DNA from: an uncultured Ignavibacteriaceae bacterium
GTDB taxonomy: Bacteria > Bacteroidota > Ignavibacteria > Ignavibacteriales > Ignavibacteriaceae
Length of the DNA: 64,000 nt
Reading direction: 5' to 3'
Assembly: GCA_964617905.1 (NCBI GenBank)
Contig: CAZTZZ010000001.1
Location: 28,080 to 92,079 of the forward strand
Each line of letters starts with the position of its first letter. Position 1 is the first letter of the stretch. Below the pieces are notes generated by a model. It did not search any database, was not told where the DNA came from, and saw nothing but the letters and a program-made list of their open reading frames with translations. The translations under genes were made by a program, and so were the position numbers. This document shows positions 17,080 through 64,000 of the stretch, piece by piece.

Positions 17080-17457
17080 ATGAATCTTAAATTTCTTGTC
17101 GTTGATGACTCAGTTACTATGCGTAGAATAGTTATCAATTCGTTACGTAACTTAGGTTACAATAATTTTGTTGAAGCCGGTGAGGGTAAAGAAGCACTCG
17201 AAAAGCTTTCAACGGAAGCGGGTATAAATTTCATTGTAACTGATTGGAATATGCCTGTAGTTTCCGGTCTTGAGTTGGTTAAAGCAATCCGCGGTAATGA
17301 AAAACTATCAAGTCTTCCAATCCTTATGGTTACCACTCGTGGCGTAAAAGAAGACATTGTAGTTGCTTTACAAGCAAAGGTTAATAACTATATTGTTAAA
17401 CCCTTTACACCACAAATTTTAAAAGAAAAAATCGACCAAATTCTTCAAGTATCCTAA
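17080..17457 (+). CDS. cheY: Chemotaxis response regulator CheY
   Basis: KFLVVDDSVTMRRIV..FIVTDWNMPVVSGLELVKAIR..PILMVTT..YIVKPFT is a canonical CheY pattern (TDWNMP). Confidence 0.88.
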   Translation: MNLKFLVVDDSVTMRRIVINSLRNLGYNNFVEAGEGKEALEKLSTEAGINFIVTDWNMPVVSGLELVKAIRGNEKLSSLPILMVTTRGVKEDIVVALQAKVNNYIVKPFTPQILKEKIDQILQVS

Positions 17458-17467
17458 AAGGTAAAAA

Positions 17468-18223: not shown

Positions 18224-18226
18224 ACT

Positions 18227-44740: not shown

Positions 44741-44750
44741 AGATAATATT

Positions 44751-48394: not shown

Positions 48395-48410
48395 AAAAAG
48401 GAGATAAGAT

Positions 48411-49208
48411 ATGCCAAACAGAGCTTTAAGAACTGCAGCATCCGGAATGTATGCACAAGAGTTAAATATTGAAGTAATCTCAAACAATATTGCAAATATT
48501 AATACTACGGGATACAAAAGGAATAAAGCAGAATTTCAGGATTTAATGTATCAGCAAGTTAATGTAAATCCTGTAAATTCTTCAATACCGGGCGTTAATG
48601 ATAATCCTGCTAATTCAATTCAGGTTGGGAACGGCGTTGTTCCAACATCAACGGCAAAGATATTTACTCAGGGAGACATTACTCCTACGAATAATCAAAT
48701 GGATTTCGCAATTCAAGGTGATGGTTTTTTTCAAGTAAGAAAAGAAGATGGAACATTTGCGTATACTCGTGACGGGTCATTCAAGGTAAATGCTGATGGG
48801 AAAATAGTAACCTCCAGCGGTTATGTTGTTGATCCGGAATTATCTATTGATGAAAATGCGATTGGGATATCTGTGGGAAAAGAGGGTACTGTTACTGTAC
48901 AAGAAGCAGGCGGTAATTCATATGTATTAGGAAATATTGAACTTGCACGATTTATGAATCCCGGCGGTTTGAAAGCATTAGGTAATAATTTATATGCTCA
49001 GACAGAATCCTCAGGAACACCAATAATAGGTGCACCTGGCAAAGACGGTTTTGGTAATATTAGTCAAGGTTATCTGGAATCTTCTAATGTAGATATTGTT
49101 GAAGAAATGATATCAATGATAGCAGCACAAAGAGCTTACGAAATAAATTCTAAAACTGTACAAACAGTACAGGAAATGATGCAGATGGCAAATAACCTGA
49201 AAAGATAA
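48411..49208 (+). CDS. flgG: Distal rod protein FlgG
   Basis: ALRTAASGMYAQELNIEVISNNIANINTTGYKRNKAEFQDLMYQ and C-terminal GYLESSNVDIVEEMISMIAAQRAYEINSK. Confidence 0.93.
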   Translation: MPNRALRTAASGMYAQELNIEVISNNIANINTTGYKRNKAEFQDLMYQQVNVNPVNSSIPGVNDNPANSIQVGNGVVPTSTAKIFTQGDITPTNNQMDFAIQGDGFFQVRKEDGTFAYTRDGSFKVNADGKIVTSSGYVVDPELSIDENAIGISVGKEGTVTVQEAGGNSYVLGNIELARFMNPGGLKALGNNLYAQTESSGTPIIGAPGKDGFGNISQGYLESSNVDIVEEMISMIAAQRAYEINSKTVQTVQEMMQMANNLKR

Positions 49209-49211
49209 ATT

Positions 49212-49871
49212 ATGAGCACATTAATATTAGTAATATTTTCGTTTTTTATTCAAACCGGCACCCCTTTAAAAAGTCAGCTGGAAAATTATATGAATAAAAA
49301 CCTTACGAATTATACAAATTCCGGTGAGTATGAGTTCGAAATCATAAAACTGCCTAAGTTATATAAAGAGATTGTTTTATTAAAACCGAATGAATTCAAT
49401 ATAAAAGGAAATTTTGTTTATCTGCCGGTTAAAATTGTTAAGAATAGCGGAAGAGTTGTTAAAACATTTTTAACTATTAAAGTAAAAATATTCCGTAATG
49501 TACTTGTAACCAAGAAAAGAATTAACAGAAAAGAAAATCTTAAACCCGAAAATTTTAGATACGAGAAAAGGGATATTACTATAATAAAAGGAACTCCCAT
49601 TTATAAGTTGGATAGAATCCGCTTGTATAGAAGCAAGGTACTTAAACAACCCGATAATGTTTTAACTTCTGAGATTATAGAAAAAATTCCTATTGTAAAT
49701 GTGGGGGATGAGTTGATGGCAAAATATGTAACCGGAAATATTCTTGTTACTTTCAGGGCTTTTGCAAGACAGGAGGGGGCATCTGGCGATGTGATTTCAG
49801 TAATTACTAAAGATAAAAAACTGTTTAAAGGTAAAATATTTGATTCAAAAAATTTAAATATAGTAGAGTGA
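49212..49871 (+). CDS. flgA: P-ring assembly chaperone FlgA
   Basis: C-terminal SAF-type segment VNVGDELMAKYVTGNILVTFRAFARQEGASGDVISVITKDKKLFKGKI. Position before flgH-flgI. Confidence 0.75.
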   Translation: MSTLILVIFSFFIQTGTPLKSQLENYMNKNLTNYTNSGEYEFEIIKLPKLYKEIVLLKPNEFNIKGNFVYLPVKIVKNSGRVVKTFLTIKVKIFRNVLVTKKRINRKENLKPENFRYEKRDITIIKGTPIYKLDRIRLYRSKVLKQPDNVLTSEIIEKIPIVNVGDELMAKYVTGNILVTFRAFARQEGASGDVISVITKDKKLFKGKIFDSKNLNIVE

Positions 49872-49873
49872 AT

Positions 49874-50437
49874 ATGAAAGCCATAATTACATTAAGCATT
49901 TGCTTGCTCGCGTCAAATATGTTTGCACAGGATATGAGACAAAACATTTTTTCTTCTCTTTTCTCAGACCAAAAAGCAAATAAAATTGGAGATGCTATTA
50001 CTATCCTTGTCATTGAATCTTCACAGGCATCAAATAATGCAGAAACAAGTACGGGAAGAACAAGTGACCTTGGTTTTACACAAAAAATGCAGGACGGGAC
50101 TCCCGGTACAGGAATTACAATTGGATCAAATAATAACTTTAAAGGTTCGGGGTTTACAAAAACCCAAGGAATTGTCAGAACAAAAATCAGTGCTACGGTA
50201 GATTCTGTCTTGGCTAACGGTAATCTTGTTATAAAAGGTGAGAGAAAGATAATAATAAACGGTCAAGAACAGAAAGTATTTATTAAAGGTATTGTAAGAA
50301 TATCTGATATCGCTCCTGATAATTCAGTGTTATCATATAATATTTCAAATGCAGAGATAGTTTTTAGCGGTGAAGGATCAATTAATAGCTCGCTTTCTCC
50401 CGGTTGGTTAACCAAGTTTTTCCATTGGATTTTTTAG
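49874..50437 (+). CDS. flgH: L-ring protein FlgH
   Basis: LFSDQKANKIGDAITILVIESSQASNNAETSTGR and VLANGNLVIKGERKIIINGQEQKVFIKGIVR. I prefer the ATG at 49874 to the GTG at 49868. Confidence 0.88.
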   Translation: MKAIITLSICLLASNMFAQDMRQNIFSSLFSDQKANKIGDAITILVIESSQASNNAETSTGRTSDLGFTQKMQDGTPGTGITIGSNNNFKGSGFTKTQGIVRTKISATVDSVLANGNLVIKGERKIIINGQEQKVFIKGIVRISDIAPDNSVLSYNISNAEIVFSGEGSINSSLSPGWLTKFFHWIF

Positions 50438-50445
50438 GAATTATA

Positions 50446-51534
50446 ATGAAAAAATTAATTGTAATATATCTGTTGTTAGGTATAAGCCTTTTATACGGGC
50501 AAAGAATTAAAGATATCGCTTATTTAAACGGTGAAAAATCCGAACAGATAATTGGTTACGGATTAGTTGTAGGACTAGCAAGCACGGGAGATACTCAACG
50601 TTCTACATTTACTATTCAATCAATCACAAGTATGTTAAAAAGATTTGGAATTACTGTACCGCAAAATAATTTACGTGTAAGGAATGTAGCAGCAGTTATG
50701 GTTACCGCCACTTTAAGTTCATATCTGAAACCGGGTGCAAAATTTGATTTAACGGTTTCTTCGATGGGTGATGCAACTAGCCTTCAAGGGGGCACATTAT
50801 TGATGACTCCTTTGTCTGGGATGACAGGTGGTGTTTACGGATTCGGGCAGGGGCCTATTTCAGTTGGAGGTTATGATTTTAGAACTCGTACAGGAAACCG
50901 TATAGCAAAGAATCATACTCTTGGAGGAAGAGTTCCATTGGGAGGGATATTACAAACAACTATGCGCCAAAATAATGTTTCAAAAACTGAAGTCAGTGTT
51001 TATTTACGAGAGCCGGACATAACAACTTCTAATAATATTGCGGCGGCAATTAATAGCAAATTAGGCAAAGACATAGCAATTCCTAATGATGCTGCTGAAG
51101 TAAAAGTAAAAGTTCCTTCAGACAAGCAGAAAAATTTTATTTCTTTCTTAGCAGAGCTTGAAAACATTGAGGTGGAAAAAGATAATATTGCAAAGGTAGT
51201 TTTGGATGAAAGAAGCGGAACTATAGTTGCAGGTAATAAAGTGAAAATATTACCTTCTTCAATAACTCACGGTAGTCTTAATATTACTATAAGATCCTTT
51301 CCAATAATTTCGCAGCCAAATGCTTTTTCAAATGGAACCACAACTGTGTTTAATAACCTGGTCCCTTATGTTTCACAAGATTCCACCAATACAATTGCTA
51401 TTGAAGGAGCTTCAAATGTGCAACAGGTAGCTGCAGCGCTTAACTCATTAAAGGTTTCACCCAGGGATATAATTGCAATTTTTCAGGCATTAAAAAAAGC
51501 AGGTGCTCTTATCGGTGAACTGGAGGTAATATGA
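50446..51534 (+). CDS. flgI: P-ring protein FlgI
   Basis: Signal peptide MKKLIVIYLLLGISLLYG, then QRIKDIAYLNGEKSEQIIGYGLVVGLASTGD. The ORF-track start at 50404 adds 14 non-signal residues and overlaps flgH. Confidence 0.92.
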   Translation: MKKLIVIYLLLGISLLYGQRIKDIAYLNGEKSEQIIGYGLVVGLASTGDTQRSTFTIQSITSMLKRFGITVPQNNLRVRNVAAVMVTATLSSYLKPGAKFDLTVSSMGDATSLQGGTLLMTPLSGMTGGVYGFGQGPISVGGYDFRTRTGNRIAKNHTLGGRVPLGGILQTTMRQNNVSKTEVSVYLREPDITTSNNIAAAINSKLGKDIAIPNDAAEVKVKVPSDKQKNFISFLAELENIEVEKDNIAKVVLDERSGTIVAGNKVKILPSSITHGSLNITIRSFPIISQPNAFSNGTTTVFNNLVPYVSQDSTNTIAIEGASNVQQVAAALNSLKVSPRDIIAIFQALKKAGALIGELEVI

Positions 51535-52346
51535 TAAAAAATCTGCAGTTAAAAATTACCGATAACCATAGACATATTAATTCTCCGACTTCTGTGGGTA
51601 ATCGTTATTCAAACAAACAAAAAGCTAAAATAGCTGATGCATCAAAAAAATTCGAAAGTCTTTTAACATCAATGATGCTTAAAAGTATGAACCAAACTTC
51701 AGGCGGAATGTTCGGGAAGAACAGTTATGGCGGTGATATGTTTGATTCAATTTTTCAAAATGATATGTCTCTTTTTATTTCAAAAAACCATTCTCTCGGA
51801 GTTGCAGATATTCTTTATAAAAAAATTACTGGCGAGAATATTAACTCGTTGAACAATAATCCAAATGATTTTCAGCTTAATAAAATTTTTAATTTGAAAA
51901 AGAATAAAGCAAAAAATATTCATGCAATTGTTCCCACCAATAGCGCAATTAAAAGACTAAATAAATATGAGAAAATAATAGAAAAAGCATCTGTTAATTA
52001 CGGTGTAGATAAAAATCTCATTAAATCTGTAATTCTAACTGAATCCTCTGCAAGGGCAGATGCACTTTCCAAATCAAAAGCAAAAGGATTAATGCAGCTG
52101 ATTGATTCAACCGCGATAAAGGTAGGTGTTGAAAATGTATGGGATCCGTCACAAAATATTCTTGGGGGTACTAAATACCTTGCGGAATTACTTAGAAAAC
52201 ACGACGGGAATATAAAGCTTGCTTTGGCTTCCTATAATGCAGGACCATTAAATGTTGATAAGTATGGGGGAATTCCTCCTTTCGAGGAAACTCAAAATTA
52301 TGTAACAAGAGTTATTGGTTATCTGAATCATTTAAAAGGAGAATAA
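51531..52346 (+). CDS. flgJ: FlgJ-like rod-assembly protein: N-terminal rod-binding domain fused to an SLT-type lytic transglycosylase
   Basis: Rod-binding motif ASKKFESLLTSMMLKSM..GGDMFDSIFQNDMSLFISKNHSLGVADILYKKI. SLT motifs VILTESSARADALSKSKAKGLMQL (catalytic Glu-Ser), LALASYNAGP and PPFEETQNYV. Confidence 0.8.
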   Translation: MIKNLQLKITDNHRHINSPTSVGNRYSNKQKAKIADASKKFESLLTSMMLKSMNQTSGGMFGKNSYGGDMFDSIFQNDMSLFISKNHSLGVADILYKKITGENINSLNNNPNDFQLNKIFNLKKNKAKNIHAIVPTNSAIKRLNKYEKIIEKASVNYGVDKNLIKSVILTESSARADALSKSKAKGLMQLIDSTAIKVGVENVWDPSQNILGGTKYLAELLRKHDGNIKLALASYNAGPLNVDKYGGIPPFEETQNYVTRVIGYLNHLKGE

Positions 52347-52347
52347 A

Positions 52348-52800
52348 ATGGAAATGAGCGATTTGTTTAAGGCCCTTAAAGAGCAATATGAATTTCTTCA
52401 TGCTTATTTAGGTACTTTAATCCAACATCAAAAAGCTATAATAAGCGGCAACATTGAAGAGCTGGAAGAAACAATTAAAGGTGAGGGTGCTTTATTAATT
52501 ATTGTAGAAAATTATCAAAACAAAATTGTTGATGTAATTAAAAATTTATCCGATAAATATTTACTTAAACTACAAAATTATAAACTCTCTGATTTCATAG
52601 CCGCAATTAAACATGAAAACAAATATGATACTACCAGTCTTAGTAAAATGCAAGATTCTCTTGTCAAAATGGGGGATGAGATAATCAAAGTTAATAATCA
52701 AAATAAATTACTTGTAAATCAAGCAAGATATTTAATTAAAGAAACTATATCTACAATTGTGAATGAAAATAATGTGCCAATACTTGATAGGACAATTTAA
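52348..52800 (+). CDS. flgN: FlgN-like export chaperone (putative)
   Basis: 150-aa helical protein (LFKALKEQYEFLHAYLGTLIQHQKAIISGNIEELEE) immediately upstream of flgK-flgL. The call rests mainly on position and helical character. Confidence 0.5.
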   Translation: MEMSDLFKALKEQYEFLHAYLGTLIQHQKAIISGNIEELEETIKGEGALLIIVENYQNKIVDVIKNLSDKYLLKLQNYKLSDFIAAIKHENKYDTTSLSKMQDSLVKMGDEIIKVNNQNKLLVNQARYLIKETISTIVNENNVPILDRTI

Positions 52801-54158
52801 TGGGAATAAGCAGAATATTTAATATTGCACAAAAAAGTCTTTCGGTTTATCAGGGAGCGCTTGATGTAACTGCAAATAATATTGCCAATTCATCAAACCC
52901 AAATTATTCAAGACAGCGTGCAGTAATTACTAATGAAACTGCCCAGCAAATAGGCCATCTTTCTTGGGGTGTAGGTGTAAAACTGGATGATATACAAAGG
53001 GTTAGGGATTCTTTAATTGATCAGCAATTCCGTGCAAATAATCAACAATATTCTGATTTAGATCAGAGAAACATAATACTAAGTGAGATAGAAAATCTTT
53101 TTTCAGAACCATCGGATATCGGTCTGTCAAGTTTATCGACTGCATTTTATAATTCTTGGCAGCAACTTACAGTAACTCCTAATTCGGTAGTGTTGAGAAA
53201 TAATGTTATTCAAGCAGCACAAAATCTGAGCACTAAAATTAAAAATATAAATGATGGCTTAGATACAATAAAATCCAATATTGTATCGGAAACAACAGAC
53301 AAAGTAAATTCATTAAATTCAAATATAAAACAGATTCAAAGTTTAAATTCTCAAATTTTAAAAAGTAAATCTTCCGGTGTAAATGCAAATGATTTAATTG
53401 ATAAAAGAGATGAAGTGATTGATGATTTAAGTAAATTAGTTAACATTAGTGTCTCTTATGATTCTAACAATTCTGCTATTGTTACAATTGGAGGCGTATT
53501 TATAGCTGATAAGGCAAGTTTTGTTCAGTTTAAATCAACAGTAGAAGGTGGAAAATTAAAGATAACCTCTTCCGACGGAACTTCATCGCCAAATATAAAT
53601 AGCGGCCAGTTGTTTGCATTAACCGATACGTTTAATAAAACAATTCCGGGTTACCAATCATCACTTGACAGTTATATTAACAGTTTAGTTGATTCATTAA
53701 ATAAACAGCATACTAAAGGATACACAATTACAAACCCTCCGGTAACATCTGTTAATTTTTTTGACGGTTATGCTAATGGTGAACTTAAAATTAATTCACA
53801 AATACTTAATGATCCGAATAAAATAGCAATATCTAAAGACGGAACTTCAGGCAACGGTGATATTGCATTGAATATTGCCAATCTTTATACACAAAAAGAT
53901 GCGAACGGGGTAACGCTCCAAGATAATTATATAAATTTAATTGCACAAATTGGAAATGATAAAAAATCAGCAGCCGATTCTTCAAAAGCATATAAATTAT
54001 CAATAGATCATCTTCAAAAACAAAAGATATCTGTCTCCGGTGTTTCTATAGATGAAGAGATGTCAAATGTAATTCGATTTCAAAGGTCTTACGATGCATC
54101 GGCAAAATTAATTAAAGTAGCTGATGAAATGTTACAAATTCTTTTAAGAATGTTTTAG
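52800..54158 (+). CDS. flgK: Hook-filament junction protein FlgK (HAP1)
   Basis: IFNIAQKSLSVYQGALDVTANNIANSSNPNYSRQR and C-terminal VSIDEEMSNVIRFQRSYDASAKLIKVADEML. Confidence 0.92.
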   Translation: MGISRIFNIAQKSLSVYQGALDVTANNIANSSNPNYSRQRAVITNETAQQIGHLSWGVGVKLDDIQRVRDSLIDQQFRANNQQYSDLDQRNIILSEIENLFSEPSDIGLSSLSTAFYNSWQQLTVTPNSVVLRNNVIQAAQNLSTKIKNINDGLDTIKSNIVSETTDKVNSLNSNIKQIQSLNSQILKSKSSGVNANDLIDKRDEVIDDLSKLVNISVSYDSNNSAIVTIGGVFIADKASFVQFKSTVEGGKLKITSSDGTSSPNINSGQLFALTDTFNKTIPGYQSSLDSYINSLVDSLNKQHTKGYTITNPPVTSVNFFDGYANGELKINSQILNDPNKIAISKDGTSGNGDIALNIANLYTQKDANGVTLQDNYINLIAQIGNDKKSAADSSKAYKLSIDHLQKQKISVSGVSIDEEMSNVIRFQRSYDASAKLIKVADEMLQILLRMF

Positions 54159-54162
54159 AATT

Positions 54163-55419
54163 ATGAGAATAACTGACTTAATGTTAAATAATGATTTTGT
54201 TACGAATTTCAACAATTCAAAGACAAGAGTTAATGATCTTCAAACAAAAATCACAACCGGTAATAAATTTAATAAACCTTCGGACTCACCGGAAGGAACT
54301 TCCAGGTTACTCGGTTTAAAAAATCAAACATTACAAATTGATACGTTCAATAAAAATATTGAGAGTGGTTTATCGAATATGCAGGACACAATTACGGCAA
54401 TGGAAAGTATTCAGGGTGAGGTTACTGATGTAATGGTAAAATTAAGCAACCTTAGTAATGTTGCTGCAAGCAGCAATCTCAATAATTTTGCAGATCAAAT
54501 TGATGCTTCACTTAATGAGATATTAAACTTTTCTAATCTTAAATCTAATGGAAAATATTTATTTGGCGGTACTGATTTTTCTTCCGTTCCTTATGGCTTT
54601 TCATCGGATAAGTCAGCTATATTGGTAAAAGCAGGAGATGTATCAGGTAAACAATCAATAAGAACTTCTCAGAACACTTTTCAAAAAATTAATATGACAG
54701 GGACAGAAGTTTTTGGTACTATTGTAAATCAAAATGGAAATATTGATTCTACTACTGCGATTGGTTCAACGGTTACAAATCAAACTGATGTTTATGATGC
54801 TGCTGGTGTTAAATACACACTTAAAGTAGATTATAAAAAAACAGCGGCAAACAAATACACAATGAGTTACGATATTACCGATGGAAGCAACAACTCTGTT
54901 TTTACGCAGACACCTGCAACAAAAGCCTTGATTTTTAATTCAACTTCGGGTTATTTAGAAACAGTAGATGGTCAATCCCCCGAACAAATTCATATTAAGG
55001 CTGATAAAGCAAACATTGATTTTAATTTAGACCAAACTTCAATTAAAGTGGCAAGCGGAAGTTCTAGTCTTGCTTTTTCAGTAAATCAAAAAACTGACAT
55101 TTTTAATATCCTGCTTAATATTAGAAACGATCTTAGAGCCGGAAAAATTCCTACGGATGAACAGATAAAAAGTGTCTCTGATTTTAACAATCATTTATTA
55201 GACAACATTGCAAAAGCAGGAAATAATACCAATCAATTGAATAATGCTAAGGATGTGTTGAATAACCAGAAAACACAAATAGAAAAAGTTGCCGCCTCTA
55301 TTCAGGGGGTAGATATGGCAAAGGCTATAATGGATCTTCAAGCACAAAATTATTTATTGCAAGTTTCATATAAACTTGCTGCATCTATTTCAACAAAAAC
55401 ATTAATAGATTTTTTATGA
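54163..55419 (+). CDS. flgL: Hook-filament junction protein FlgL (HAP3)
   Basis: MRITDLMLNNDFVTNFNNSKTRVNDLQTKITTGNKFNKPSDSPEG and a flagellin-like C-terminus, VDMAKAIMDLQAQNYLLQVSYKLAASI. Confidence 0.88.
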   Translation: MRITDLMLNNDFVTNFNNSKTRVNDLQTKITTGNKFNKPSDSPEGTSRLLGLKNQTLQIDTFNKNIESGLSNMQDTITAMESIQGEVTDVMVKLSNLSNVAASSNLNNFADQIDASLNEILNFSNLKSNGKYLFGGTDFSSVPYGFSSDKSAILVKAGDVSGKQSIRTSQNTFQKINMTGTEVFGTIVNQNGNIDSTTAIGSTVTNQTDVYDAAGVKYTLKVDYKKTAANKYTMSYDITDGSNNSVFTQTPATKALIFNSTSGYLETVDGQSPEQIHIKADKANIDFNLDQTSIKVASGSSSLAFSVNQKTDIFNILLNIRNDLRAGKIPTDEQIKSVSDFNNHLLDNIAKAGNNTNQLNNAKDVLNNQKTQIEKVAASIQGVDMAKAIMDLQAQNYLLQVSYKLAASISTKTLIDFL

Positions 55420-56195
55420 TAAAAAAAGTAGGAACATTTTACGGACTTTTACTCGGGTTTCTTTCTATTTTCGGTGCCTTTATACTGGAAGGTGGGACAT
55501 TTAAATCATTGTTTTTAATTTCTCCTTTAATAATTGTTTTCGGTGGAACATTCTCGGCAATTATTATTGGGTTTGGATTTGACAGATTTAAAAATATACT
55601 ATCCCTGATAAAGTTAGCCTATTTCCCCCAAAAATATAATTTGAATAACATCATAAATAATTTGGTGGATTTTTCGATAATATCTAGAAAAGAAGGCTTA
55701 TTATCTATTGAAAAGAAAATAGATAGGTTGGAATATTTATTTCCCAAAAAGCTTATAAAATATGTTATTGACGGCTCAGAGGAAGATGCTTTGCAAAATC
55801 TTGCTGTATTAGAAATTAATGCAATGCAGGAAAGGCATTTTTCTAACATTTTTATTTTTACAAAAATGGGCGGATATGCCCCTACAATGGGAATTATAGG
55901 TACGGTGATGGGCCTGATTATGACACTTGCTGGTGCAAGCGGCGATCCAAGTTCTTTAATAAAAAATATCGCTTCTGCATTTATAGCAACATTATGGGGT
56001 GTTTTTAGTGCAAATATTTTATGGTTACCAATTGGTGATAAGTTAAAAAAATGTCATATGGAAGAGAAAAAAATGATGGAACTTTCTCTGGAGGGAGTGT
56101 TAGCCTTACAGAGCGGGGAGATTCCCTCGGTGGTAAAAGCCAGGTTAGTAAGCCTAATGCCACAAAAAGAGCAACAAAAAATGTTGAATCTTTAA
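55416..56195 (+). CDS. motA: Stator channel protein MotA, set 1
   Basis: Four TM segments. MGGYAPTMGIIGTVMGLI and ASAFIATLWGVFSANILWLPIGDKL are MotA/TolQ/ExbB family motifs. Followed by an OmpA-like MotB. Confidence 0.85.
   Translation: MIKKVGTFYGLLLGFLSIFGAFILEGGTFKSLFLISPLIIVFGGTFSAIIIGFGFDRFKNILSLIKLAYFPQKYNLNNIINNLVDFSIISRKEGLLSIEKKIDRLEYLFPKKLIKYVIDGSEEDALQNLAVLEINAMQERHFSNIFIFTKMGGYAPTMGIIGTVMGLIMTLAGASGDPSSLIKNIASAFIATLWGVFSANILWLPIGDKLKKCHMEEKKMMELSLEGVLALQSGEIPSVVKARLVSLMPQKEQQKMLNL
55654..55680 (+). promoter_or_regulatory. Sigma-28-like motif inside motA (set 1)
   Basis: TAAA (55654-55657), N15, TTCGATAA (55673-55680), in the sense orientation, 370-530 nt upstream of the possible motB starts. 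Confidence 0.25.
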
Positions 56196-56209
56196 ACTCT
56201 TCCGGACCT

Positions 56210-56905
56210 TTGTTTGACGAAGATAGCGAAAAAGATCGTTATCTAATTACATATGCTGATTTAATAACTTTATTATTAGGATTATTTATTATTTTATATT
56301 CTATTTCAAATATTGACACCGGCAAATACAAAAAAATGCTTTCCGCTATGGAGAGTGTATTTGGTAATAAAAACAAGGTTGTTTCTACTGAATCGAATGT
56401 TTTACCAAATATAAATTATAAGGATGGCATTTTAAAAACTAAATTAATTAAACTTATTGATAAATATAATTACGGTAATTCAATCAGATTAGATGAAAAT
56501 GAAAGGGGAATTACTATTCATATTTTAGAAAATATTCTCTTTGCCTCCGGTAATGCTATTCTGAATAATGGATCCAAAGAAGTTTTAAATAGACTTGCTG
56601 TCATTTTAAAAGAATTACCAAATGATATAAGGATTGAAGGGCATACCGACAATATACCTATCCATAATTCAATTTTTATTTCTAACTGGCACCTTTCTGT
56701 TACCCGGGCTTTAAATACCGCATATTATTTTATAAATAAACAAGGACTTTCAGCCGAAAAAATTTCAATAGTTGGTTATTCAAAATATAAACCTATTGAT
56801 AATAACAATTCCGTAAAAGGAAGAGCGAGTAATAGAAGAGTAGATATTGTAATAATAAGAGACACTAAAAATGGAAATAATAAAATATCAATTTGGAAAA
56901 ATTGA
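56210..56905 (+). CDS. motB: Stator protein MotB, set 1 (start uncertain)
   Basis: TM/plug region RYLITYADLITLLLGLFIILYSI. OmpA-like domain FASGNAILNNGSKEVL..IRIEGHTDNIPI..SNWHLSVTRAL..NRRVDIVI. The only in-frame ATG (56051) gives a 145-nt overlap with a motA C-terminus that looks genuine. A TTG at 56210 is the first canonical start after motA, but it has no obvious SD. Confidence 0.8.
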   Translation: MFDEDSEKDRYLITYADLITLLLGLFIILYSISNIDTGKYKKMLSAMESVFGNKNKVVSTESNVLPNINYKDGILKTKLIKLIDKYNYGNSIRLDENERGITIHILENILFASGNAILNNGSKEVLNRLAVILKELPNDIRIEGHTDNIPIHNSIFISNWHLSVTRALNTAYYFINKQGLSAEKISIVGYSKYKPIDNNNSVKGRASNRRVDIVIIRDTKNGNNKISIWKN

Positions 56906-56970
56906 AATAAAATAATTATAAAAATTCTTATTCAGGATTATTTTGTTTTTAATTCCTGAGGTATTATAAA

Positions 56971-57396
56971 ATGATTAATGAAGGAAAAAAAACAACTATA
57001 CTAATTGTTGATGATTCAGAGATAATAATAAGAGTACTGAAACATTTTTTTAAAGATTATAATATTGAACTTTTGACAAGTAAAAATGGACTTGAAGGAA
57101 TTGAAATGGCTGAAAAATATAAACCGGCATTAATTTTTTTGGATATTATGATGCCGAATATTGATGGAATTAAGGTGCTGCAGATATTGAAAATATTTGA
57201 AAGTATTAAAAAGATACCTGTAATAGTAATAAGCGGAAATACTAATCGTGAAAATACAATGACATCCATAGAAGCAGGTGCAGAAAGAATAATGTCAAAA
57301 CCGTTAGATAAAAATGTTGTTATAAAATTTATCAATGAAATTTTAGGTAGTAATTTTCTAGAAAAACTTAAAAAAACAAGAATAGCTGAGGCATAA
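56971..57396 (+). CDS. Single-domain response regulator (REC), paralogue of the REC in 58136-58861
   Basis: ILIVDDSEIII..LIFLDIMMPNIDGIKVL..PVIVISGNTNR..IEAGAERIMSKPL. Confidence 0.85.
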   Translation: MINEGKKTTILIVDDSEIIIRVLKHFFKDYNIELLTSKNGLEGIEMAEKYKPALIFLDIMMPNIDGIKVLQILKIFESIKKIPVIVISGNTNRENTMTSIEAGAERIMSKPLDKNVVIKFINEILGSNFLEKLKKTRIAEA

Positions 57397-57494
57397 TAAA
57401 TAAAGGTTATAAAAATAAATTTGCAGATAAATACAAAAAACAAAAAAATAAAATAATTTAAGAGCAGTTATTTTAATAATTAGAAGTAATAAAA

Positions 57495-57875
57495 ATGAAA
57501 ATAAAAACATACCAATTTGGCGAAATTGAATATAAACAGGAACACCTGATCAATTTTTCATCAGGTTTATTTGGTTTTGAACATCTGAAGGAATTCCTGC
57601 TAATAAAAATTGAAGAAGAATTATTTTATTGGCTTACTTCTGTAGAAAAGCCTGAAATAATTTTCCCTTTAATCGGGGTAAGAGCGATTGATGATAAATA
57701 TCCCGAGGTGGAAAAACATGAAGCCTTCGGTATAGTTACGTTGAATTCTGATTTATTAAATGTTACTGTCAATCTGAAATCACCTGTTTATATTGATGAG
57801 GGAACAAAAACCGGTTTTCAGAAAATATTAGATTCTGAAACATACAAAGTAGAATATAACTTATTTAAACAATGA
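57495..57875 (+). CDS. fliW: Flagellar assembly factor FliW (CsrA antagonist)
   Basis: FGEIEYKQEHLINFSSGLFGFEHLKEFLLI...FYWLTSVEKPEIIFPLI...VTVNLKSPVYI, immediately upstream of csrA. Confidence 0.85.
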   Translation: MKIKTYQFGEIEYKQEHLINFSSGLFGFEHLKEFLLIKIEEELFYWLTSVEKPEIIFPLIGVRAIDDKYPEVEKHEAFGIVTLNSDLLNVTVNLKSPVYIDEGTKTGFQKILDSETYKVEYNLFKQ

Positions 57876-57891
57876 TGAGTGTGGATTATAT

Positions 57892-58149
57892 ATGCTTGTT
57901 TTAACTAGAAAGACTGATGACGAAATAAAGATTAATTCGGAAATTACAATAAAAGTATTGGCAATATCTGAAGGACAGGTAAAACTTGGTATTTCGGCTC
58001 CGGATAACGTAGAAATATACAGAGGTGAGATCTACGAAAAAATTAGGCAAGCAACTATCGAAGCTTCTGAAAGTAGTAAACTAAAGCCTAAAGACTTATC
58101 AGCTTTATTAGTAAATAAAATCAGGAAAATAAAAAATGATAAACGATGA
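57892..58149 (+). CDS. csrA: Carbon storage regulator CsrA
   Basis: MLVLTRKTDDEIKINSEITIKVLAISEGQVKLGISAPDNVEIYRGEIYEKI. Confidence 0.93.
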   Translation: MLVLTRKTDDEIKINSEITIKVLAISEGQVKLGISAPDNVEIYRGEIYEKIRQATIEASESSKLKPKDLSALLVNKIRKIKNDKR

Positions 58150-58861
58150 AAAAAAATTGACGATTCTTGTTGTAGATGATTCAGATTTAATAAGGACCTC
58201 ACTAAAAACATTTTTTGGTGACTATAACATAAAAGTTATTACAAGTAATGACGGGTTGGACGGCATTCAAAAGGCTGTTAAATATAAACCGTCATTAATA
58301 TTTCTTGACTTATTGATGCCGAATTTTGACGGCATAAAAATGCTTCAGGTAATTAAAGTTCTCGATCATATAAAAGTTATACCTGTAATAGTAATAAGCG
58401 GAAATACAAATAGAACAAATGTAATTGCGTCATTAGAAGCAGGTGCAGAAAGAGTAATCTCAAAACCGTTAAAAAAAGAAATATTGTTAAAAAACATAAA
58501 TGAAATTTTAGGCAGTAATTTCCTAAAGAACGCTAAATTATCTTCAAAGGAATCCAATGTTAATAATGATGAATTAAAACAAAAATTAACGGAATCATTT
58601 TTAAATACTTTTTCCGATAGAAAAAATATTATTGAAAGATCTTTGTTTAATCATAATGTAGCGGAAATACAAAAAATAGCTCACGAATTAAAAGGTGAAG
58701 GAGGGATGATTGGGTTAAATAAATTAAGTTTATTAGGCGGAAAAATTGAAGATCATCTTTCTAAAAAAGATATTGATTGGAATAATATAAAAAAAATGTA
58801 CAATCAAGTATTTGCAATAGTATCTAACTTAGAAGAATTAAATTTTAAAAATATGGAATAA
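58136..58861 (+). CDS. REC-Hpt fusion protein
   Basis: REC (ILVVDDSDLIR..LIFLDLLMPNFDGIKML..PVIVISGNTNR..LEAGAERVISKPL) plus a C-terminal Hpt motif, IAHELKGEGGMIGLNKL. The ATG overlaps the last 14 nt of csrA. Confidence 0.8.
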   Translation: MINDEKKLTILVVDDSDLIRTSLKTFFGDYNIKVITSNDGLDGIQKAVKYKPSLIFLDLLMPNFDGIKMLQVIKVLDHIKVIPVIVISGNTNRTNVIASLEAGAERVISKPLKKEILLKNINEILGSNFLKNAKLSSKESNVNNDELKQKLTESFLNTFSDRKNIIERSLFNHNVAEIQKIAHELKGEGGMIGLNKLSLLGGKIEDHLSKKDIDWNNIKKMYNQVFAIVSNLEELNFKNME

Positions 58862-58864: not shown

Positions 58865-59719
58865 GTGTTTGTAATAGTCGGCATAGTAGTAGTAGTTTTA
58901 TCAATAGCTGTAGGTTTTTTAATTGCAGGAGGAAATTTATTATTGCTCATTCAATGGTCAGAATTCCTTGTAATTGGCGGAGCTGCACTTGGTAGTCTTT
59001 TAATTTCTGCACCTCTTTCTTTATTAAAAAAAATCTTTGCGGAAATTCTTAAAATTTTAAAACCGGACCATTTTAACAAAGAAGATTATCTGGAATTACT
59101 AAAATCATTTAATGAATTATTCCAGATAGCACAAAGAGATGGATTAATTTCAATAGAATCACATATTGAAGAACCACAGGAAAGCGAGATATTGTCAAAG
59201 AACAAAAAATTTGTTGAAAATGAAATGCTTCGAAATTTCTTTTCCGATACTATGAAAGTTATGCTTTCGGGAGGTGTTCCTCCTCACGAACTCGAAGATT
59301 TAATTGATACAGAAATAGAAACATTTGAGTTGGAGAATAAACCTATAGGCGGAACAATTGCAAAAGTTGGAGATTCTTTACCCGGGTTGGGTATTGTTGC
59401 TGCCGTATTAGGAATTATAGTTACAATGGGTTCAATTAACGAAGGAGCCGAAGTGGTAGGGCATCACGTTGCTTCTGCTCTTGTTGGTACTTTTTTAGGT
59501 GTTTTAATGGCTTATGGATTTGTTAATCCTCTGGCTTCTAATGTTGAGCACAGTTTTGAAAATAAAACCAGGTTACTACAAACAATTAAATCTTGTATTG
59601 TTGCTTTTGCCAAAGGAAATCCACCGATTGTAGCTGTAGAAATTGCAAGAAGGACAATCTTTTCTGATAACAGACCAACATTTAGTGAATTAGAAAATTA
59701 TGTAAGAGGGAAAAAATAA
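58865..59719 (+). CDS. motA: Stator channel protein MotA, set 2 (proteobacterial-type)
   Basis: 284 aa. GDSLPGLGIVAAVLGIIVTMGSI and HHVASALVGTFLGVLMAYGFVNPLA. GTG start. Confidence 0.85.
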   Translation: MFVIVGIVVVVLSIAVGFLIAGGNLLLLIQWSEFLVIGGAALGSLLISAPLSLLKKIFAEILKILKPDHFNKEDYLELLKSFNELFQIAQRDGLISIESHIEEPQESEILSKNKKFVENEMLRNFFSDTMKVMLSGGVPPHELEDLIDTEIETFELENKPIGGTIAKVGDSLPGLGIVAAVLGIIVTMGSINEGAEVVGHHVASALVGTFLGVLMAYGFVNPLASNVEHSFENKTRLLQTIKSCIVAFAKGNPPIVAVEIARRTIFSDNRPTFSELENYVRGKK

Positions 59720-59722
59720 GTA

Positions 59723-60505
59723 ATGTCCGAAGAGAAAAGCAGCCAACCGATAATTGTTAAGAAAATAAACAAGCATGGAGGACATCACGGCGGTGCGTGG
59801 AAGGTTGCTTATGCTGACTTTGTTACGGCTATGATGGCATTATTTATTGTTTTATGGATATTAGGACAAGATCAAAAAATCAGAAATTCTGTTGCCCACT
59901 ATTTTAAAAACCCAATTGGATTTTCTAATAAAGGAAAGAATATTTTAGTTGGTGATAATTCCGGTTTATCAGGGGCTAATGATGCACAAAAAAACAGCAA
60001 ATTAATATCCCGATTACAAGAAATGAAAATTTTAAGAGAAATGGGCGAGAAACTTCTGGGGGAATTAAAAAAAAATGAAACTTTTAAATCTCTGGCCGGA
60101 CAAATAAAAATTGATTTTGTTAAAGAAGGTTTAAGGATAGAAATATTAGAATCATCTAAAGACTTTTTTTTTGAAATAGGTACGGCTAAACTTAAAAAAT
60201 CAGCAAGACTTCTTTTAGCACAAATTGGAAATAACCTTGCGAAATTACCGAATAAAATAATTTTACAGGGTCACACAGATTCACGCCCTTATTCAGGAGG
60301 AGGTAAAGGTTATACTAATTTTGAACTGAGTGCAGACAGAGCAAATTCGGCAAGACGAGCTTTAATTGCCGACAGTTTATCTGAAAAACAAATATTCGAA
60401 GTTAATGGTTTTGCTGATAGTAAATTAAGAGACCCCAAACATCCATACAGTTTTATAAACAGACGAATAAGTATTATAGTCAAATATACGGACGAAGGAA
60501 AATGA
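59723..60505 (+). CDS. motB: Stator protein MotB, set 2
   Basis: HHGGAWKVAYADFVTAMMALFIVLWIL, closely resembling the E. coli MotB N-terminus. OmpA-like LQGHTDSRPY..NFELSADRANSARRAL..NRRISIIV. Confidence 0.88.
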   Translation: MSEEKSSQPIIVKKINKHGGHHGGAWKVAYADFVTAMMALFIVLWILGQDQKIRNSVAHYFKNPIGFSNKGKNILVGDNSGLSGANDAQKNSKLISRLQEMKILREMGEKLLGELKKNETFKSLAGQIKIDFVKEGLRIEILESSKDFFFEIGTAKLKKSARLLLAQIGNNLAKLPNKIILQGHTDSRPYSGGGKGYTNFELSADRANSARRALIADSLSEKQIFEVNGFADSKLRDPKHPYSFINRRISIIVKYTDEGK

Positions 60506-60894
60506 AAAAAATTCTTGTTGTGGAAGATAATCAGTTAATTATTGATTTTTATAAAATTATTCTAAAAAATGCCGGTTATTATCCTGTTGTTCTTGAGGAC
60601 GGAGAAAAAATTATGAGTTTACTGGCTCAAGATGAGGTTAGTTTAATTATTATGGATATAAACTTGGGCAATTGTTATCTTTCAGGTGAAAAAATTGATG
60701 GTATCAAACTTTCTAATCATATAAAGCAAGATGTAAGGTTCTTTAGTATTCCATTAATAATGGTTTCTGCCTATACACCTGATATTTTAGAAGGAAGGAT
60801 TGATGGCAACTACAAACCGGATTGTTTTTTGACTAAACCAATTTTAGATTTTGACATATTAATTAATAAAATAAATCAGTTAGTATTAAATTGA
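60502..60894 (+). CDS. Single-domain response regulator with an insertion after the phospho-acceptor Asp
   Basis: ILVVEDN..LIIMDINLGNCYLSGEKIDGIKL..LIMVSAY..FLTKPI. ATGA overlap with motB set 2. Confidence 0.8.
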   Translation: MKKILVVEDNQLIIDFYKIILKNAGYYPVVLEDGEKIMSLLAQDEVSLIIMDINLGNCYLSGEKIDGIKLSNHIKQDVRFFSIPLIMVSAYTPDILEGRIDGNYKPDCFLTKPILDFDILINKINQLVLN

Positions 60895-61544
60895 ATACGA
60901 ATAAAATTCTCGTTGTGGAAGATGAAAAGGATACACTTTTTATCTTAGAAAGGCTCCTTTTGAAAAATAATTACCAGGTTTTTACTGCAACCAACGGTCA
61001 GGAAGCACTAGAGATGCTAAAAAAAATGATGCCAGATGTAATTATTGCAGATTGGACTATGCCGATAATAGATGGGATTGAATTGTGCGATATTATTAAA
61101 AAAGATGAAAAATACAAACTGATTTATTTTATATTATTAACTGCAAGGGCTTCTTTGAAAGACCGAGTTGCGGGTTTAGATATTGGTGCAGATGATTTTC
61201 TTGTAAAACCGGTTCAGAATCAAGAAATTATGGCACGAATTAGGTCAGGTATTAGAATTCATAATTTACAGAATGAATTAAAAAGAATTGAACATGGTAA
61301 AGTACTTTTAGAGATGGCAGCAACAATCGGTCATAAAATTAATAATCCTTTAAGCAGCTTGTTGATGACTATTAAAAGTCTTGAAGATGATTTAAAAAAT
61401 GATGAAAATAAATTTGAAGAGGATTTTCAAATAATTAATGCATCTATTGAAAGAATTAAAAAGCTTGCGAACGACCTTTCCCAAATTAAAGTTCCGGAAA
61501 TAATTGATTACACAGCCGATAGCAAAATGATAAAATTAGAATAG
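60891..61544 (+). CDS. REC + DHp (HisKA-like) protein with no ATPase domain
   Basis: REC (ILVVEDEKD..VIIADWTMPIIDGIEL..FILLTA..FLVKPV), then LLEMAATIGHKINNPLSSLLMTI (H-box). The protein ends about 70 aa later with no N/G1/G2 boxes. The TTG start overlaps the previous stop. Confidence 0.75.
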   Translation: MNTNKILVVEDEKDTLFILERLLLKNNYQVFTATNGQEALEMLKKMMPDVIIADWTMPIIDGIELCDIIKKDEKYKLIYFILLTARASLKDRVAGLDIGADDFLVKPVQNQEIMARIRSGIRIHNLQNELKRIEHGKVLLEMAATIGHKINNPLSSLLMTIKSLEDDLKNDENKFEEDFQIINASIERIKKLANDLSQIKVPEIIDYTADSKMIKLE

Positions 61545-61589: not shown

Positions 61590-62252
61590 ATGGGTATGTT
61601 AGATAAAATTAATAAAATAAATTCAGGCAGTGATTTTTCTAAATCAACGGGACCTAAAGTATACAGATCAGGTATTCACTCAAAGAATAAACCTGAAATA
61701 GATTATCATGATTCTGTTGATATCTCTCCTGCATTTAAATATATAATTAACGTTAACTGGAGATTAAAAAATTTTAAATATGATAAAGATGAAAAATTAT
61801 TAATTGATTTTATTGTTTCCGGTATTGAATTTCAATTGTCCGTTGATTTAATGAATTATAAAAACCTTTCTTCTTTTAATTATAGGTTATATAAAGTTGT
61901 GGTAAAAGGTACGGAAAATTATAAGATTGTTGCGGATGTTAATTCTAAGATTGAATCGATAAATTATGAACATGATTCAGAGTTATTAAATTTTTCAGCG
62001 TTAAATATATTCTTTAACCGTATTTTTGAGCAAAATATTTATGTTGGTCTAATTAAAGATGACAAATATTTCTTTGATGATTTACTTGAAGGAATTTTTC
62101 AAGGAATTAAAGAAGAATTTAAGCAACTAAATAACCAGGTACTTGTTTTTTTTAATAGGTTAACAGGAAAAAAAATTCTAAATAATATCTCAACAAATCA
62201 AGATTATCTTGAGCCAATATTGATTAAAAAAATTAAAATTATAGATGTCTGA
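61590..62252 (+). CDS. Hypothetical protein
   Basis: 220-aa ORF with no recognisable motif. An alternative ATG lies at 61596. Its stop overlaps the start of the following kinase gene. Confidence 0.4.
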   Translation: MGMLDKINKINSGSDFSKSTGPKVYRSGIHSKNKPEIDYHDSVDISPAFKYIINVNWRLKNFKYDKDEKLLIDFIVSGIEFQLSVDLMNYKNLSSFNYRLYKVVVKGTENYKIVADVNSKIESINYEHDSELLNFSALNIFFNRIFEQNIYVGLIKDDKYFFDDLLEGIFQGIKEEFKQLNNQVLVFFNRLTGKKILNNISTNQDYLEPILIKKIKIIDV

Positions 62253-64000
62253 AATCATTCCCCCAAAAAATTTGTATAATACAACTTATAATGATATACT
62301 TACTGAAGTTGAATCGTTTGATGTGTTGCCGGAAAGTGATCCGTTAATAGTTGTAGATGATTCTTGTGAAGTAATGTTTTCTAATAATTCATTTAAGAAA
62401 ACGTTTCGCTTAAATAACGAGCAAGATTTTTTTAACTTAACAACCGAACCCGATCTTAAAGCATTGGTTAAAAATTTAAGCAGTAGAAACTACACCAACT
62501 TTCAGATTGATTTGACCATATCATCAGAAAATGATTTTGATGGTAATCTATTCAATTTGGAATTAGAACGGCTTACCCTTGAAAACAAAAAATACAACAC
62601 AATTAAGTTAAAATCATTAAAAGAAAATTCCAGATTTGAAGAGAGAATTAATAACCTTCATTTTGCGCTTGAATATGGGAAAGTTCCTGTAATATTTATT
62701 GATAAAGACGGAATAATAAAATATTCAACTGCTTTTTTTGAAGATATATTAAAATTTAATATCGAAGAATTATTTAATAAGTCTATCTCGGAAGTATTGT
62801 TTGAATTTCTAACTTATAAGGAAAAAGATCGTTTTGATAAAGCTATTCTTGATAAAAAAGAATGGTCGAAAACAATTTCAAGAAAATTAGTGAATGGAAA
62901 CGTGGAATATTATGATTTAAAACTTCTGCCTATTTATAAAGGAGTGGATGATAAACCAAGTTTTCTTTTAACAGCTAATGATATAACTGATTATGTATTG
63001 AAAAACTTATTCGTAAAAAAATCTGAAAAAAGACTTAAATCAATTATTAATAATATTACTGACCTGTTATTGATATTTCAGAAAAAAGGTAACGAATACT
63101 TATTTGAAAATGCTAATGATAATTTCTGCAAATCGTTTTCTATTGATAAAAATAAAGTATTAAGGAAAAATCTTAATTTATTTTTAGATAAGTCTTTCTT
63201 TCTACAACTTCAACTTTCAATTCAAGAATTTTATACAAGTAAAAGTATGATTGTTGAATTTAACTATAGAAGTAAACAAAACAGAACATTCAGCGCTAAG
63301 ATTACTTTTATAGGGCCTAAATCATTTGACAATACGTTGTATATATTAAGTATGGAAGATATAACAGATCAGGTTTTATACAGGGAGCAACTTGAAATAG
63401 CTTATAAGAAAGAAATTAATCTAAATAAACTTAAGACAGCTTTTCTTGAAAATATGTCTCACGAAATACGGACACCTTTCAATGCTATACTTGGCTATTC
63501 AGATATAATTGATGATTGCATAAAGGATAAAGATTATGAAACTATTTTGGAATTGATGTCTTCTTTTAAAGATGTTTTAAACAGAGTACTTAAGTTGTTT
63601 AATAATATTGATGAAGTTTTTCAAATTACCTCCGGTGAATTGGAGTTAGATTTTGTTACACTTAATATTAACCAGGTGTTAAAAGCAGTATATAATAAAA
63701 GGATTCAAGAAGTAACTAGTAAAAACCTAGATTTCAAATTGGAGCTTTATAAAAATGATTTGTGCATTGATACTGACTGGGTAAAATTTGAAAAAATTAT
63801 AAACTCTCTTATAGATAACGCAATTAAGTATACTAATGAAGGACGTATAAAATTAATTTCAAGATTCTTAAATGATAAAGCCGAAATAGTAATTTCCGAT
63901 ACAGGCAAAGGAATTAAGACGGAAAATATGAAAAAGTTATTTGAACCATTTGTACAAGAGGAAGAAGCTTATATAAGAAACTATGAAGGTGCAGGTCTTG
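62245..64000 (+). CDS. PAS-type sensor histidine kinase, 3'-truncated at the window edge
   Basis: Not in the ORF track because no stop is reached. From the ATG at 62245 I saw no in-frame stop to the window end. The translation contains PAS-like segments (VPVIFIDKDGIIKYSTAFFEDIL), H-box FLENMSHEIRTPFNAILGYSD, N-box LIDNAIKYT and G1 ISDTGKGI. The window ends within G2 (GAGL). Confidence 0.75.
   Translation, partial: MSEIIPPKNLYNTTYNDILTEVESFDVLPESDPLIVVDDSCEVMFSNNSFKKTFRLNNEQDFFNLTTEPDLKALVKNLSSRNYTNFQIDLTISSENDFDGNLFNLELERLTLENKKYNTIKLKSLKENSRFEERINNLHFALEYGKVPVIFIDKDGIIKYSTAFFEDILKFNIEELFNKSISEVLFEFLTYKEKDRFDKAILDKKEWSKTISRKLVNGNVEYYDLKLLPIYKGVDDKPSFLLTANDITDYVLKNLFVKKSEKRLKSIINNITDLLLIFQKKGNEYLFENANDNFCKSFSIDKNKVLRKNLNLFLDKSFFLQLQLSIQEFYTSKSMIVEFNYRSKQNRTFSAKITFIGPKSFDNTLYILSMEDITDQVLYREQLEIAYKKEINLNKLKTAFLENMSHEIRTPFNAILGYSDIIDDCIKDKDYETILELMSSFKDVLNRVLKLFNNIDEVFQITSGELELDFVTLNINQVLKAVYNKRIQEVTSKNLDFKLELYKNDLCIDTDWVKFEKIINSLIDNAIKYTNEGRIKLISRFLNDKAEIVISDTGKGIKTENMKKLFEPFVQEEEAYIRNYEGAGL

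Follow-up and report, generated by a model that had tools for sequence, protein, structure and literature searches.

A stand-alone receiver gene beside fliW-csrA in a conserved Ignavibacteria flagellar operon: evidence for an origin by tandem duplication and deletion

INTRODUCTION

A 64,000-nt stretch of DNA (the window) from an uncultured Ignavibacteriaceae bacterium (assembly GCA_964617905.1, contig CAZTZZ010000001.1, positions 28,080 to 92,079) contains a flagellar and chemotaxis supercluster of ∼60 kb and ∼31% GC, encoded on a single strand, in which fliW and csrA lie between two genes for response regulator receivers. The upstream gene, termed REC1, encodes a stand-alone receiver, whereas the downstream gene, REC-Hpt, encodes a receiver fused to a histidine phosphotransfer (Hpt) domain. 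Background on the flagellin-FliW-CsrA partner switch is provided by PMC6529632 and PMC4894983. The first-pass annotation of the window regarded fliW-csrA as physically embedded among His-Asp phosphorelay genes, which the Pfam domains of the neighbouring genes bear out, and proposed that the embedding could couple CsrA output to phosphorylation. The locus therefore raises the question of whether the pair of receivers around fliW-csrA represents a conserved regulatory module or arose in some other way. The explanation favoured here comprises a conserved operon, an origin of REC1 by duplication and deletion, retention of REC1 by selection and an inferred role for it in a phosphorelay, and taken as a whole it is considered likely.

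THE TWO RECEIVERS FLANKING fliW-csrA

The four genes are located on the forward strand in the order REC1 (56971-57396; 141 aa), fliW (57495-57875; 126 aa), csrA (57892-58149; 85 aa) and REC-Hpt (58136-58861; 241 aa). Both receivers match Response_reg (PF00072; cut-off 30.2 bits), REC1 with 85 bits and REC-Hpt with 81.6 bits, and the downstream protein also carries the Hpt domain that had been read from its sequence (PF01627; 33.2 bits, cut-off 24.6). FliW (PF02623) scores 76 bits against a cut-off of 25, and CsrA (PF02599) 80.6 bits against a cut-off of 27, with positions 1-52 of the 53-position profile covered. The fliW gene ends 16 nt 5′ of csrA, and the ATG of REC-Hpt (58136) falls inside csrA, whose final 14 nt, stop codon included (TGA, 58147-58149), are shared by the two genes.

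The receivers had been judged by eye to be alike without gaps and ∼60% identical, and BLASTP yields a closely similar figure, with 86 of 134 residues identical (64%), 84% positives, no gaps and E=2e-61. At the DNA level the identity is 72.9% over 402 nt, corresponding to 109 nucleotide differences. The description of paralogous receivers on either side of fliW-csrA thus holds, and by these alignments REC1 and the receiver of REC-Hpt are true paralogues.

CONSERVATION OF THE OPERON IN IGNAVIBACTERIA

Homologues of REC-Hpt number in the hundreds, and all named ones belong to Ignavibacteria (Ignavibacteriaceae, Melioribacteraceae and Ignavibacterium). The surroundings of the gene were compared in 80 genome loci with 10-kb flanks, in which every open reading frame (ORF) was labelled by BLASTP against the proteins of the window; the loci of the closest relatives, L001 and L002, encode REC/Hpt receivers 85-87% identical to that of the window. 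Essentially all 80 loci share the order flgK-flgL-motA1-motB1-fliW-csrA-REC/Hpt-motA2-motB2-REC3-REC/HisKA-orf220, with all genes on one strand and separated by tiny gaps or overlaps, and a homologue of the PAS kinase described below follows orf220 in 47 of the 60 loci with sufficient downstream DNA. The same order, with csrA and REC/Hpt adjacent, is found in the complete Ignavibacterium sp. chromosome AP026678. REC/Hpt directly follows csrA in 80/80 loci; the spacing lies between -20 and +14 nt in all but one, and about half show an overlap. These comparisons indicate that the csrA-REC/Hpt adjacency is class-wide in Ignavibacteria and that fliW-csrA occupies its usual late-flagellar position after flgKL.

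The upstream receiver has no such distribution. The spacing between motB1 and fliW is -35 to +33 nt in the relatives, usually 5-6 nt, versus 589 nt in the window. None of the 80 loci, L001 and L002 included, has a receiver between motB1 and fliW, and none of the 77 loci that hold both of these genes has room for one, so that the proposed conservation of a REC-fliW-csrA-REC/Hpt arrangement is contradicted. Among 5.8 billion proteins no orthologue of REC1 was found, its best match being the neighbouring REC-Hpt (64%). Two short receiver-only matches, P0123 and P0125, were considered as orthologues and rejected, as they lie after csrA and represent split or frameshifted REC/Hpt genes. The bracketing by an upstream receiver is, on this comparative evidence, unique to the lineage of the window.

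The position of the REC-Hpt ATG inside csrA had also been taken to imply translational coupling. The overlap itself is real; however, short overlaps and gaps of 1-6 nt are the rule across this operon. In the window 4-nt overlaps join flgL to motA1, motB2 to REC3 and REC3 to REC-HisKA, and across the 80 loci the spacing between REC/Hpt and motA2 is mostly 0-1 nt, as tight as that on the csrA side. Since overlaps are generic here, the 14-nt csrA/REC-Hpt overlap is no special signal.

Several loci that carry the typical Ignavibacteria block (L026, L034 and L065) have been deposited as Syntrophomonadaceae, Acidobacteriota and Bacillota metagenome-assembled genomes, names that probably reflect mistakes of binning or labelling in public databases.

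ORIGIN OF REC1

A local alignment of the sequences on either side of REC1 reveals an imperfect direct repeat, with copy A at 56774-56965 and copy B at 57405-57595, both on the forward strand. The alignment score is 58, compared with 17.2 ± 2.7 (maximum 31) for 1000 shuffles, and a 77-nt core (56830-56906 versus 57454-57530) is 79% identical. Each copy consists of ∼97 nt from the 3′ end of motB1 joined to ∼95 nt from the 5′ end of fliW. In copy A the 3′ end of motB1 is intact and is followed by a degenerate remnant of the fliW 5′ end (fliW′, 56871 to about 56965), whereas in copy B a degenerate, non-coding remnant of the motB1 3′ end (motB1′, 57405-57494) precedes the real 5′ end of fliW. The first 48 nt of the fliW′ remnant (56871-56918) read MEIIKYQFGKIEIK followed by a stop codon and align with the beginning of the genuine fliW genes in L001 and L002, and the last 35 nt of motB1 read through this dead start. 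The two receivers are spaced 1165 nt apart and the flanking repeats 624 nt apart. A GAGG sequence is located 8 nt upstream of the REC1 ATG, and the REC1 leader together with this Shine-Dalgarno sequence is recycled fliW coding sequence.

The simplest history shown by these repeat scars is that REC1 is the product of a local tandem duplication followed by a deletion. In the first step, a unit of ∼1165 bp, comprising the final ∼97 nt of motB1, fliW, csrA and the receiver up to the linker between the receiver and Hpt domains, would have been duplicated in tandem, leaving a junction between the end of unit 1 and the start of unit 2 that the repeat coordinates place immediately behind the stop codon of REC1 (about 57397-57404, forward strand). 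In the second step, a deletion of ∼535-541 bp would have eliminated the whole of the extra csrA and all but the 5′ part of the extra fliW. The outcome would be a dead fliW′ stub of ∼95 nt serving as a leader, followed by the receiver-only gene REC1. Tandem duplication and deletion would thus be the reason why fliW-csrA looks bracketed. The Hag-FliW-CsrA system of Bacillus subtilis is described in PMC6529632 as working at a stoichiometry of about 1:1:1, and it may be speculated that the extra fliW-csrA was lost through dosage sensitivity.

The dead fliW start also forms a 14-codon mini-ORF (MEIIKYQFGKIEIK and a stop) that starts within the 3′ end of motB1 and terminates 52 nt 5′ of REC1; it might still be translated and influence initiation at REC1.

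Several points weigh against this account or leave its timing loose. The number of synonymous substitutions per site (dS) is near saturation, and hence the order of the duplication and the L001/L002 split cannot be fixed; for other genes of the window dS against L001/L002 is 0.6-1.5. The duplication appears to be roughly as old as that split or younger, an ordering that is not firm, and an older duplication that was lost in the relatives through recombination between the repeats is a possible alternative. A neighbour-joining tree of 84 receivers places REC1 basal to all REC/Hpt receivers and not as the sister of its neighbour. The REC1 branch in this tree is long (0.18 versus 0.05) and its basal placement is read as a long-branch effect, which makes the tree uninformative for dating and deprives a recent origin of positive support from it. 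Where the amino acid is shared, the paralogues use the same codon at 52/79 sites and orthologues at 46-47/79, a difference that is slight and not decisive. Finally, the adjacency of csrA and REC/Hpt in 80/80 loci would also be expected from a real functional link between them.

THE FliW-CsrA CHECKPOINT AND A POSSIBLE LINK TO THE PHOSPHORELAY

The candidate target of CsrA in this cluster is the leader (2293-2400, forward strand) of the flagellin gene (2401-3225, forward strand; 274 aa, with Pfam Flagellin_N and Flagellin_C domains). The leader has a sigma-28-like promoter (TAAA-N15-CCGATAA) and a hairpin, ACUGCAUA-AGGA-UAUGCAGU, of 8 bp with an AGGA tetraloop, ∼40 nt upstream of the ATG; a second GGA is provided by the Shine-Dalgarno sequence AAGGAGG, and the folding z-score of the leader is -2.4. 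It is therefore presumed to be a classic two-site CsrA target, and with it all sequence parts of the ordinary FliW-CsrA checkpoint are present. FliW and CsrA most likely run this checkpoint on the flagellin leader, in which case the adjacency of csrA and REC-Hpt would reflect late-operon co-expression rather than a demonstrated biochemical link.

The strongest competing explanation is that the phosphorelay is wired to the FliW-CsrA switch, either through phosphorylation that modulates CsrA or FliW or through control of relay translation by CsrA, so that the bracket would be a functional module. It would fit the adjacency, often with overlap, of csrA and REC/Hpt in all 80 Ignavibacteria loci and in Ignavibacterium sp., as well as the retention of a second receiver beside fliW-csrA after the duplication. 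However, the bracket is absent from every relative, REC/Hpt is joined as tightly to motA2 as to csrA, and overlaps are generic in the operon. A CsrA-type GGA motif, sought as a conserved site, precedes REC/Hpt in only 38% of the loci, no more often than it precedes neighbouring genes, and where present it falls within conserved coding sequence for the csrA C terminus. Folding z-scores of +0.23 for the csrA/REC-Hpt junction and -0.04 for the REC1 leader indicate no significant RNA structure in either, and a canonical CsrA target is already available in the flagellin leader. Specific evidence for control of CsrA by phosphorylation was not found in the sequence analysis, nor did the literature searched contain a report tying a FliW-type CsrA to a receiver, Hpt or other two-component protein. 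Such wiring is accordingly regarded as unlikely.

Counts of sigma-70-type promoters and terminators between 52 and 63 kb were at or below shuffle expectation, and no terminator-like site was found on the forward strand between 52000 and 59379; co-transcription of fliW-csrA with the relay genes is plausible from these scans. No sigma-28 motif was found by the scan near fliW, csrA or REC1.

On the forward strand, sigma-28-like motifs (TAAA-N15-xCGATAA) are overrepresented, with seven detected versus a shuffle mean of 1.5, a count above that of every shuffle. Further copies are situated at 28397-28423, 31159-31185, 10880-10906, 14304-14330 and 55654-55680, and some lie inside coding sequence; their locations include sites ahead of fliK, the gene after flgD and the che operon, and one within motA1. 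These additional motifs may represent internal class-III promoters.

SELECTION ON REC1

Despite its restricted distribution, REC1 has the features of a gene that has been maintained. Its ORF of 141 codons is intact in a sequence of 26% GC, and in neutral simulations with 60-100 substitutions at the base composition of the window it stays open in only 0.4-3% of cases. Differences from the parent receiver at codon positions 1, 2 and 3 number 38, 15 and 56, respectively. REC1 retains the active-site quintet D14, D15, D58, S88 and K110, together with 26 of the 28 columns whose conservation among 81 REC/Hpt receivers is 98% or more, and shows no change from the parent in the acidic pocket, the β4-Ser loop or residues 102-105. 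The changes are instead concentrated in helices, affecting 7 of 13 positions in α1 and 5 of 9 in α4; in receiver domains α1 forms the phosphodonor docking surface and α4 is part of the output face. Statistically, these patterns show REC1 to have been kept by selection as an intact receiver, predicted to act as a phospho-acceptor.

Between REC1 and its parent the number of non-synonymous substitutions per site (dN) is 0.257 and dS is 0.77 (dN/dS 0.34), whereas orthologous receivers show dN of 0.07-0.09, dS of 1.2-1.5 and dN/dS of 0.05-0.07. A three-point estimate assigns a dN of ∼0.22 to the REC1 branch and ∼0.04 to that of the parent, such that the REC1 protein has evolved ∼5 times faster. This rapid, lineage-specific evolution, the elevated dN/dS of the paralogues and the derivation of the REC1 leader from fliW coding sequence are what would be expected if REC1 were a relic without function, left over from the duplication and not yet disabled. 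Against this stand the open reading frame, preserved through 109 nucleotide differences where the neutral expectation is a few percent at most, the complete set of active-site residues and nearly all invariant columns, the second codon positions, which are the least changed (15 differences versus 56 at third positions), the gap-free alignment with the parent and the GAGG 8 nt upstream of the ATG. A relic is consequently judged very improbable, more so than the wiring of the relay to CsrA considered above.

An artefact of metagenome assembly (chimeric joining, or the collapse or expansion of a repeat) might be suspected in a contig from a single metagenomic sample, but is highly improbable, as the receiver copies differ at 27% and the flanking repeats at ∼21% of nucleotides, a divergence that assemblers do not generate, and as a second contig of the sample, L085 (68 kb; Joint Genome Institute (JGI) metagenome 3300002231), is 99.88% identical over 6426 aligned bp (7 mismatches and 1 gap) with the arrangement unchanged.

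THE REC-Hpt PROTEIN, THE RELAY AND THE STATORS

REC-Hpt is composed of a receiver (residues 8-125), a disordered linker (137-141) and a four-helix Hpt bundle (144-240). Its AlphaFold2 model (mean predicted local distance difference test score, pLDDT, 84.9) has the corresponding architecture of a (βα)5 receiver, linker and four-helix bundle, the Hpt helices spanning 144-172, 175-191, 195-208 and 215-240 at a pLDDT of about 85-94. The predicted phospho-accepting histidine, H183, lies on the second of these helices in an HELKG motif (H183-G187). D14, D15, D58, K110 and H183 are invariant in 35 diverse homologues, as is G187, and a precomputed match to Hpt (PF01627) exists for 24 of the 35. A Foldseek search with the whole model is led by receivers, with no Hpt-only entry among the top 50 matches listed. 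From its sequence and predicted structure, REC-Hpt looks like a working receiver-phosphotransfer fusion.

Genes for the parts of a multi-step phosphorelay are encoded together in this part of the window. In addition to REC1 and REC-Hpt, these are REC3, a single-domain receiver (60502-60894), REC-HisKA, in which a receiver is joined to a DHp domain and no HATPase domain was detected by Pfam (60891-61544), and a PAS-HisKA-HATPase histidine kinase (62260-64000) that is cut by the end of the window, all on the forward strand. REC-HisKA has a candidate phospho-accepting histidine, H148, in the sequence HKINNPL and is 56-90% identical across loci; it may function as a phosphotransferase or phosphatase. 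The gene that separates it from the PAS kinase, orf220 (61590-62252, forward strand), encodes a conserved protein of 220 aa with 12 database homologues, all named ones of which are from Ignavibacteria. No Pfam or PDB match was found for it, and its AlphaFold2 model (pLDDT 34.5) is unusable.

The operon also contains two sets of stator genes. The first, motA1B1 (55416-56905), comprises motA1 (55416-56195; Pfam MotA_ExbB, with MotA chains as its best PDB matches, E=8e-55) and motB1 (56210-56905; Pfam MotB_plug and OmpA), the start of the latter being that of the JGI gene call, whereas the longest ORF begins at 56051. The second, motA2B2 (58865-60505), comprises motA2 (58865-59719) and motB2 (59723-60505), both identified by Pfam, and all four genes are on the forward strand. 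In the relatives only fliW-csrA-REC/Hpt separates the two sets. A derivation of the two motAB pairs from the same recent duplication was considered and rejected, given the low identity of MotA1 to MotA2 (21%) and the conservation of both pairs throughout the 80 loci; the comparison indicates that they are two old stator types.

It is proposed that the PAS kinase, REC-Hpt, REC3 and REC-HisKA would constitute a relay that tunes a dual-stator motor. REC1 would take phosphoryl groups from the same relay, with the PAS kinase or the Hpt and DHp domains as donors, and would act as a stand-alone sink, a competitor or an extra branch of the relay. A sink or branch role of REC1 and a motor-related output of the relay are inferred as the most likely assignments.

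COMPARISON WITH KNOWN SYSTEMS

The Ignavibacteria arrangement resembles the Hag-FliW-CsrA system of B. subtilis and the FlaA-FliW-CsrA system of Campylobacter jejuni in that fliW and csrA are adjacent in a late operon after flgK-flgL, and in that the flagellin leader combines a sigma-28-type promoter with one GGA in a hairpin loop and another in the Shine-Dalgarno sequence. It differs from both in the insertion of motA1B1 between flgL and fliW, in the continuation of csrA into REC-Hpt, a second stator set and relay genes, and in the location of the flagellin gene, which is ∼55 kb from fliW-csrA within the same cluster. To our knowledge, no described version of the FliW-CsrA checkpoint includes a two-component protein.

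The BarA-UvrY and GacS-GacA systems, treated as phosphorelays that control CsrA/RsmA through decoy small RNAs in PMC7652899 and PMC4682653, similarly combine a His-Asp relay with a CsrA-family protein. They employ a DNA-binding response regulator and small RNAs, and their CsrA has no FliW partner, whereas the receivers considered here lack a DNA-binding output, no small RNA is evident, and the link consists of genomic adjacency alone. The HptB branch in Pseudomonas is another of the phosphorelays that control CsrA/RsmA.

Stand-alone receivers acting as sinks or branches include CheY1/CheY2 of Sinorhizobium meliloti and intermediates of the Spo0F type. REC1 is comparable in being a single-domain protein with a complete active site, encoded beside a parent receiver that feeds an Hpt domain. 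It is not an orthologue of CheY, the two cheY genes of the che operon being located at 16703-17457.

Two divergent MotA/MotB pairs serving one flagellar system are also found as MotAB/MotCD in Pseudomonas, MotAB/MotPS in Bacillus and PomAB/MotAB in Shewanella, and dual-stator motors form the subject of PMC11005332 and PMC7595845. In contrast to these motors, both pairs are here located in one operon, with relay genes directly after the second pair.

OTHER GENES OF THE WINDOW

The gene order of the window was derived from Pfam scans of most ORFs of the cluster, those at 24524-27482 and a few more excepted. Downstream of the flagellin gene, fliS and fliD (3304-5791) are followed by a kinase and sigma-54 activator pair (6175-8275), a methyl-accepting chemotaxis protein gene (12022-14115) and the chemotaxis genes cheR, cheY, cheY, cheZ, cheA and cheB (15805-21098). 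The segment 21459-42891 carries flgB/C and fliF, then fliJ-like, fliK, flgD, flgE and fliL, and after these fliM, fliN, fliR, flhB, flhA, flhF-like and flhG-like genes, and fliA is located at 43243-43869. Beyond a segment of signalling genes (43862-46933), flgF, flgG, flgA, flgH, flgI, flgJ and flgN (47687-52800) lead into flgK and flgL (52800-55419).

The signalling segment, directly 3′ of fliA, comprises two tandem paralogous HDOD/HD-domain genes encoding proteins of 292 and 294 aa, followed by a degenerate kinase-like gene whose HisKA and HATPase matches are sub-threshold. The pair and the kinase-like gene possibly form a second signalling module inside the flagellar cluster.

Upstream of the stator genes, flgL is a single ORF of 418 aa in the window (54163-55419) versus two genes encoding 294 and 123 aa in L085 (192-1449), for which a sequencing error and a strain-level frameshift are both possible; the one gap in the 6.4-kb alignment of the two might be connected with this split.

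IMPLICATIONS

The component families, FliW, CsrA, receivers, Hpt and stators, are all well known. As the bracket is an evolutionary by-product and not a conserved module, it gives no grounds for postulating a novel mode of CsrA regulation. What is new, as far as the literature searched extends, is firstly the class-wide Ignavibacteria operon in which fliW-csrA is placed between two unrelated stator sets and runs into REC-Hpt and relay genes; searches combining Ignavibacteria with fliW, csrA, stators and REC-Hpt returned no description of this arrangement. Secondly, REC1 would represent a birth of a stand-alone receiver documented by its scars, through tandem duplication and deletion of the extra fliW-csrA, in the course of which old coding sequence was recycled as a new leader and ribosome-binding site.

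A class-wide tie of the FliW-CsrA checkpoint to the stator-associated phosphorelay, through translation of REC-Hpt and of motA2B2 that is coupled to that of csrA, or through phosphorylated REC-Hpt or REC1 acting on FliW or CsrA, is held to be a long shot. If true, it would coordinate filament completion with signalling at the motor or stators, would for the first time place a His-Asp pathway upstream or downstream of a FliW-type CsrA, and would make the lineage-specific REC1 a fresh modulator of that link. The design of the operon is in any case a testable candidate for cross-talk between the control of filament assembly and motor signalling, and the cultured species Ignavibacterium album and Melioribacter roseus are available for such tests.

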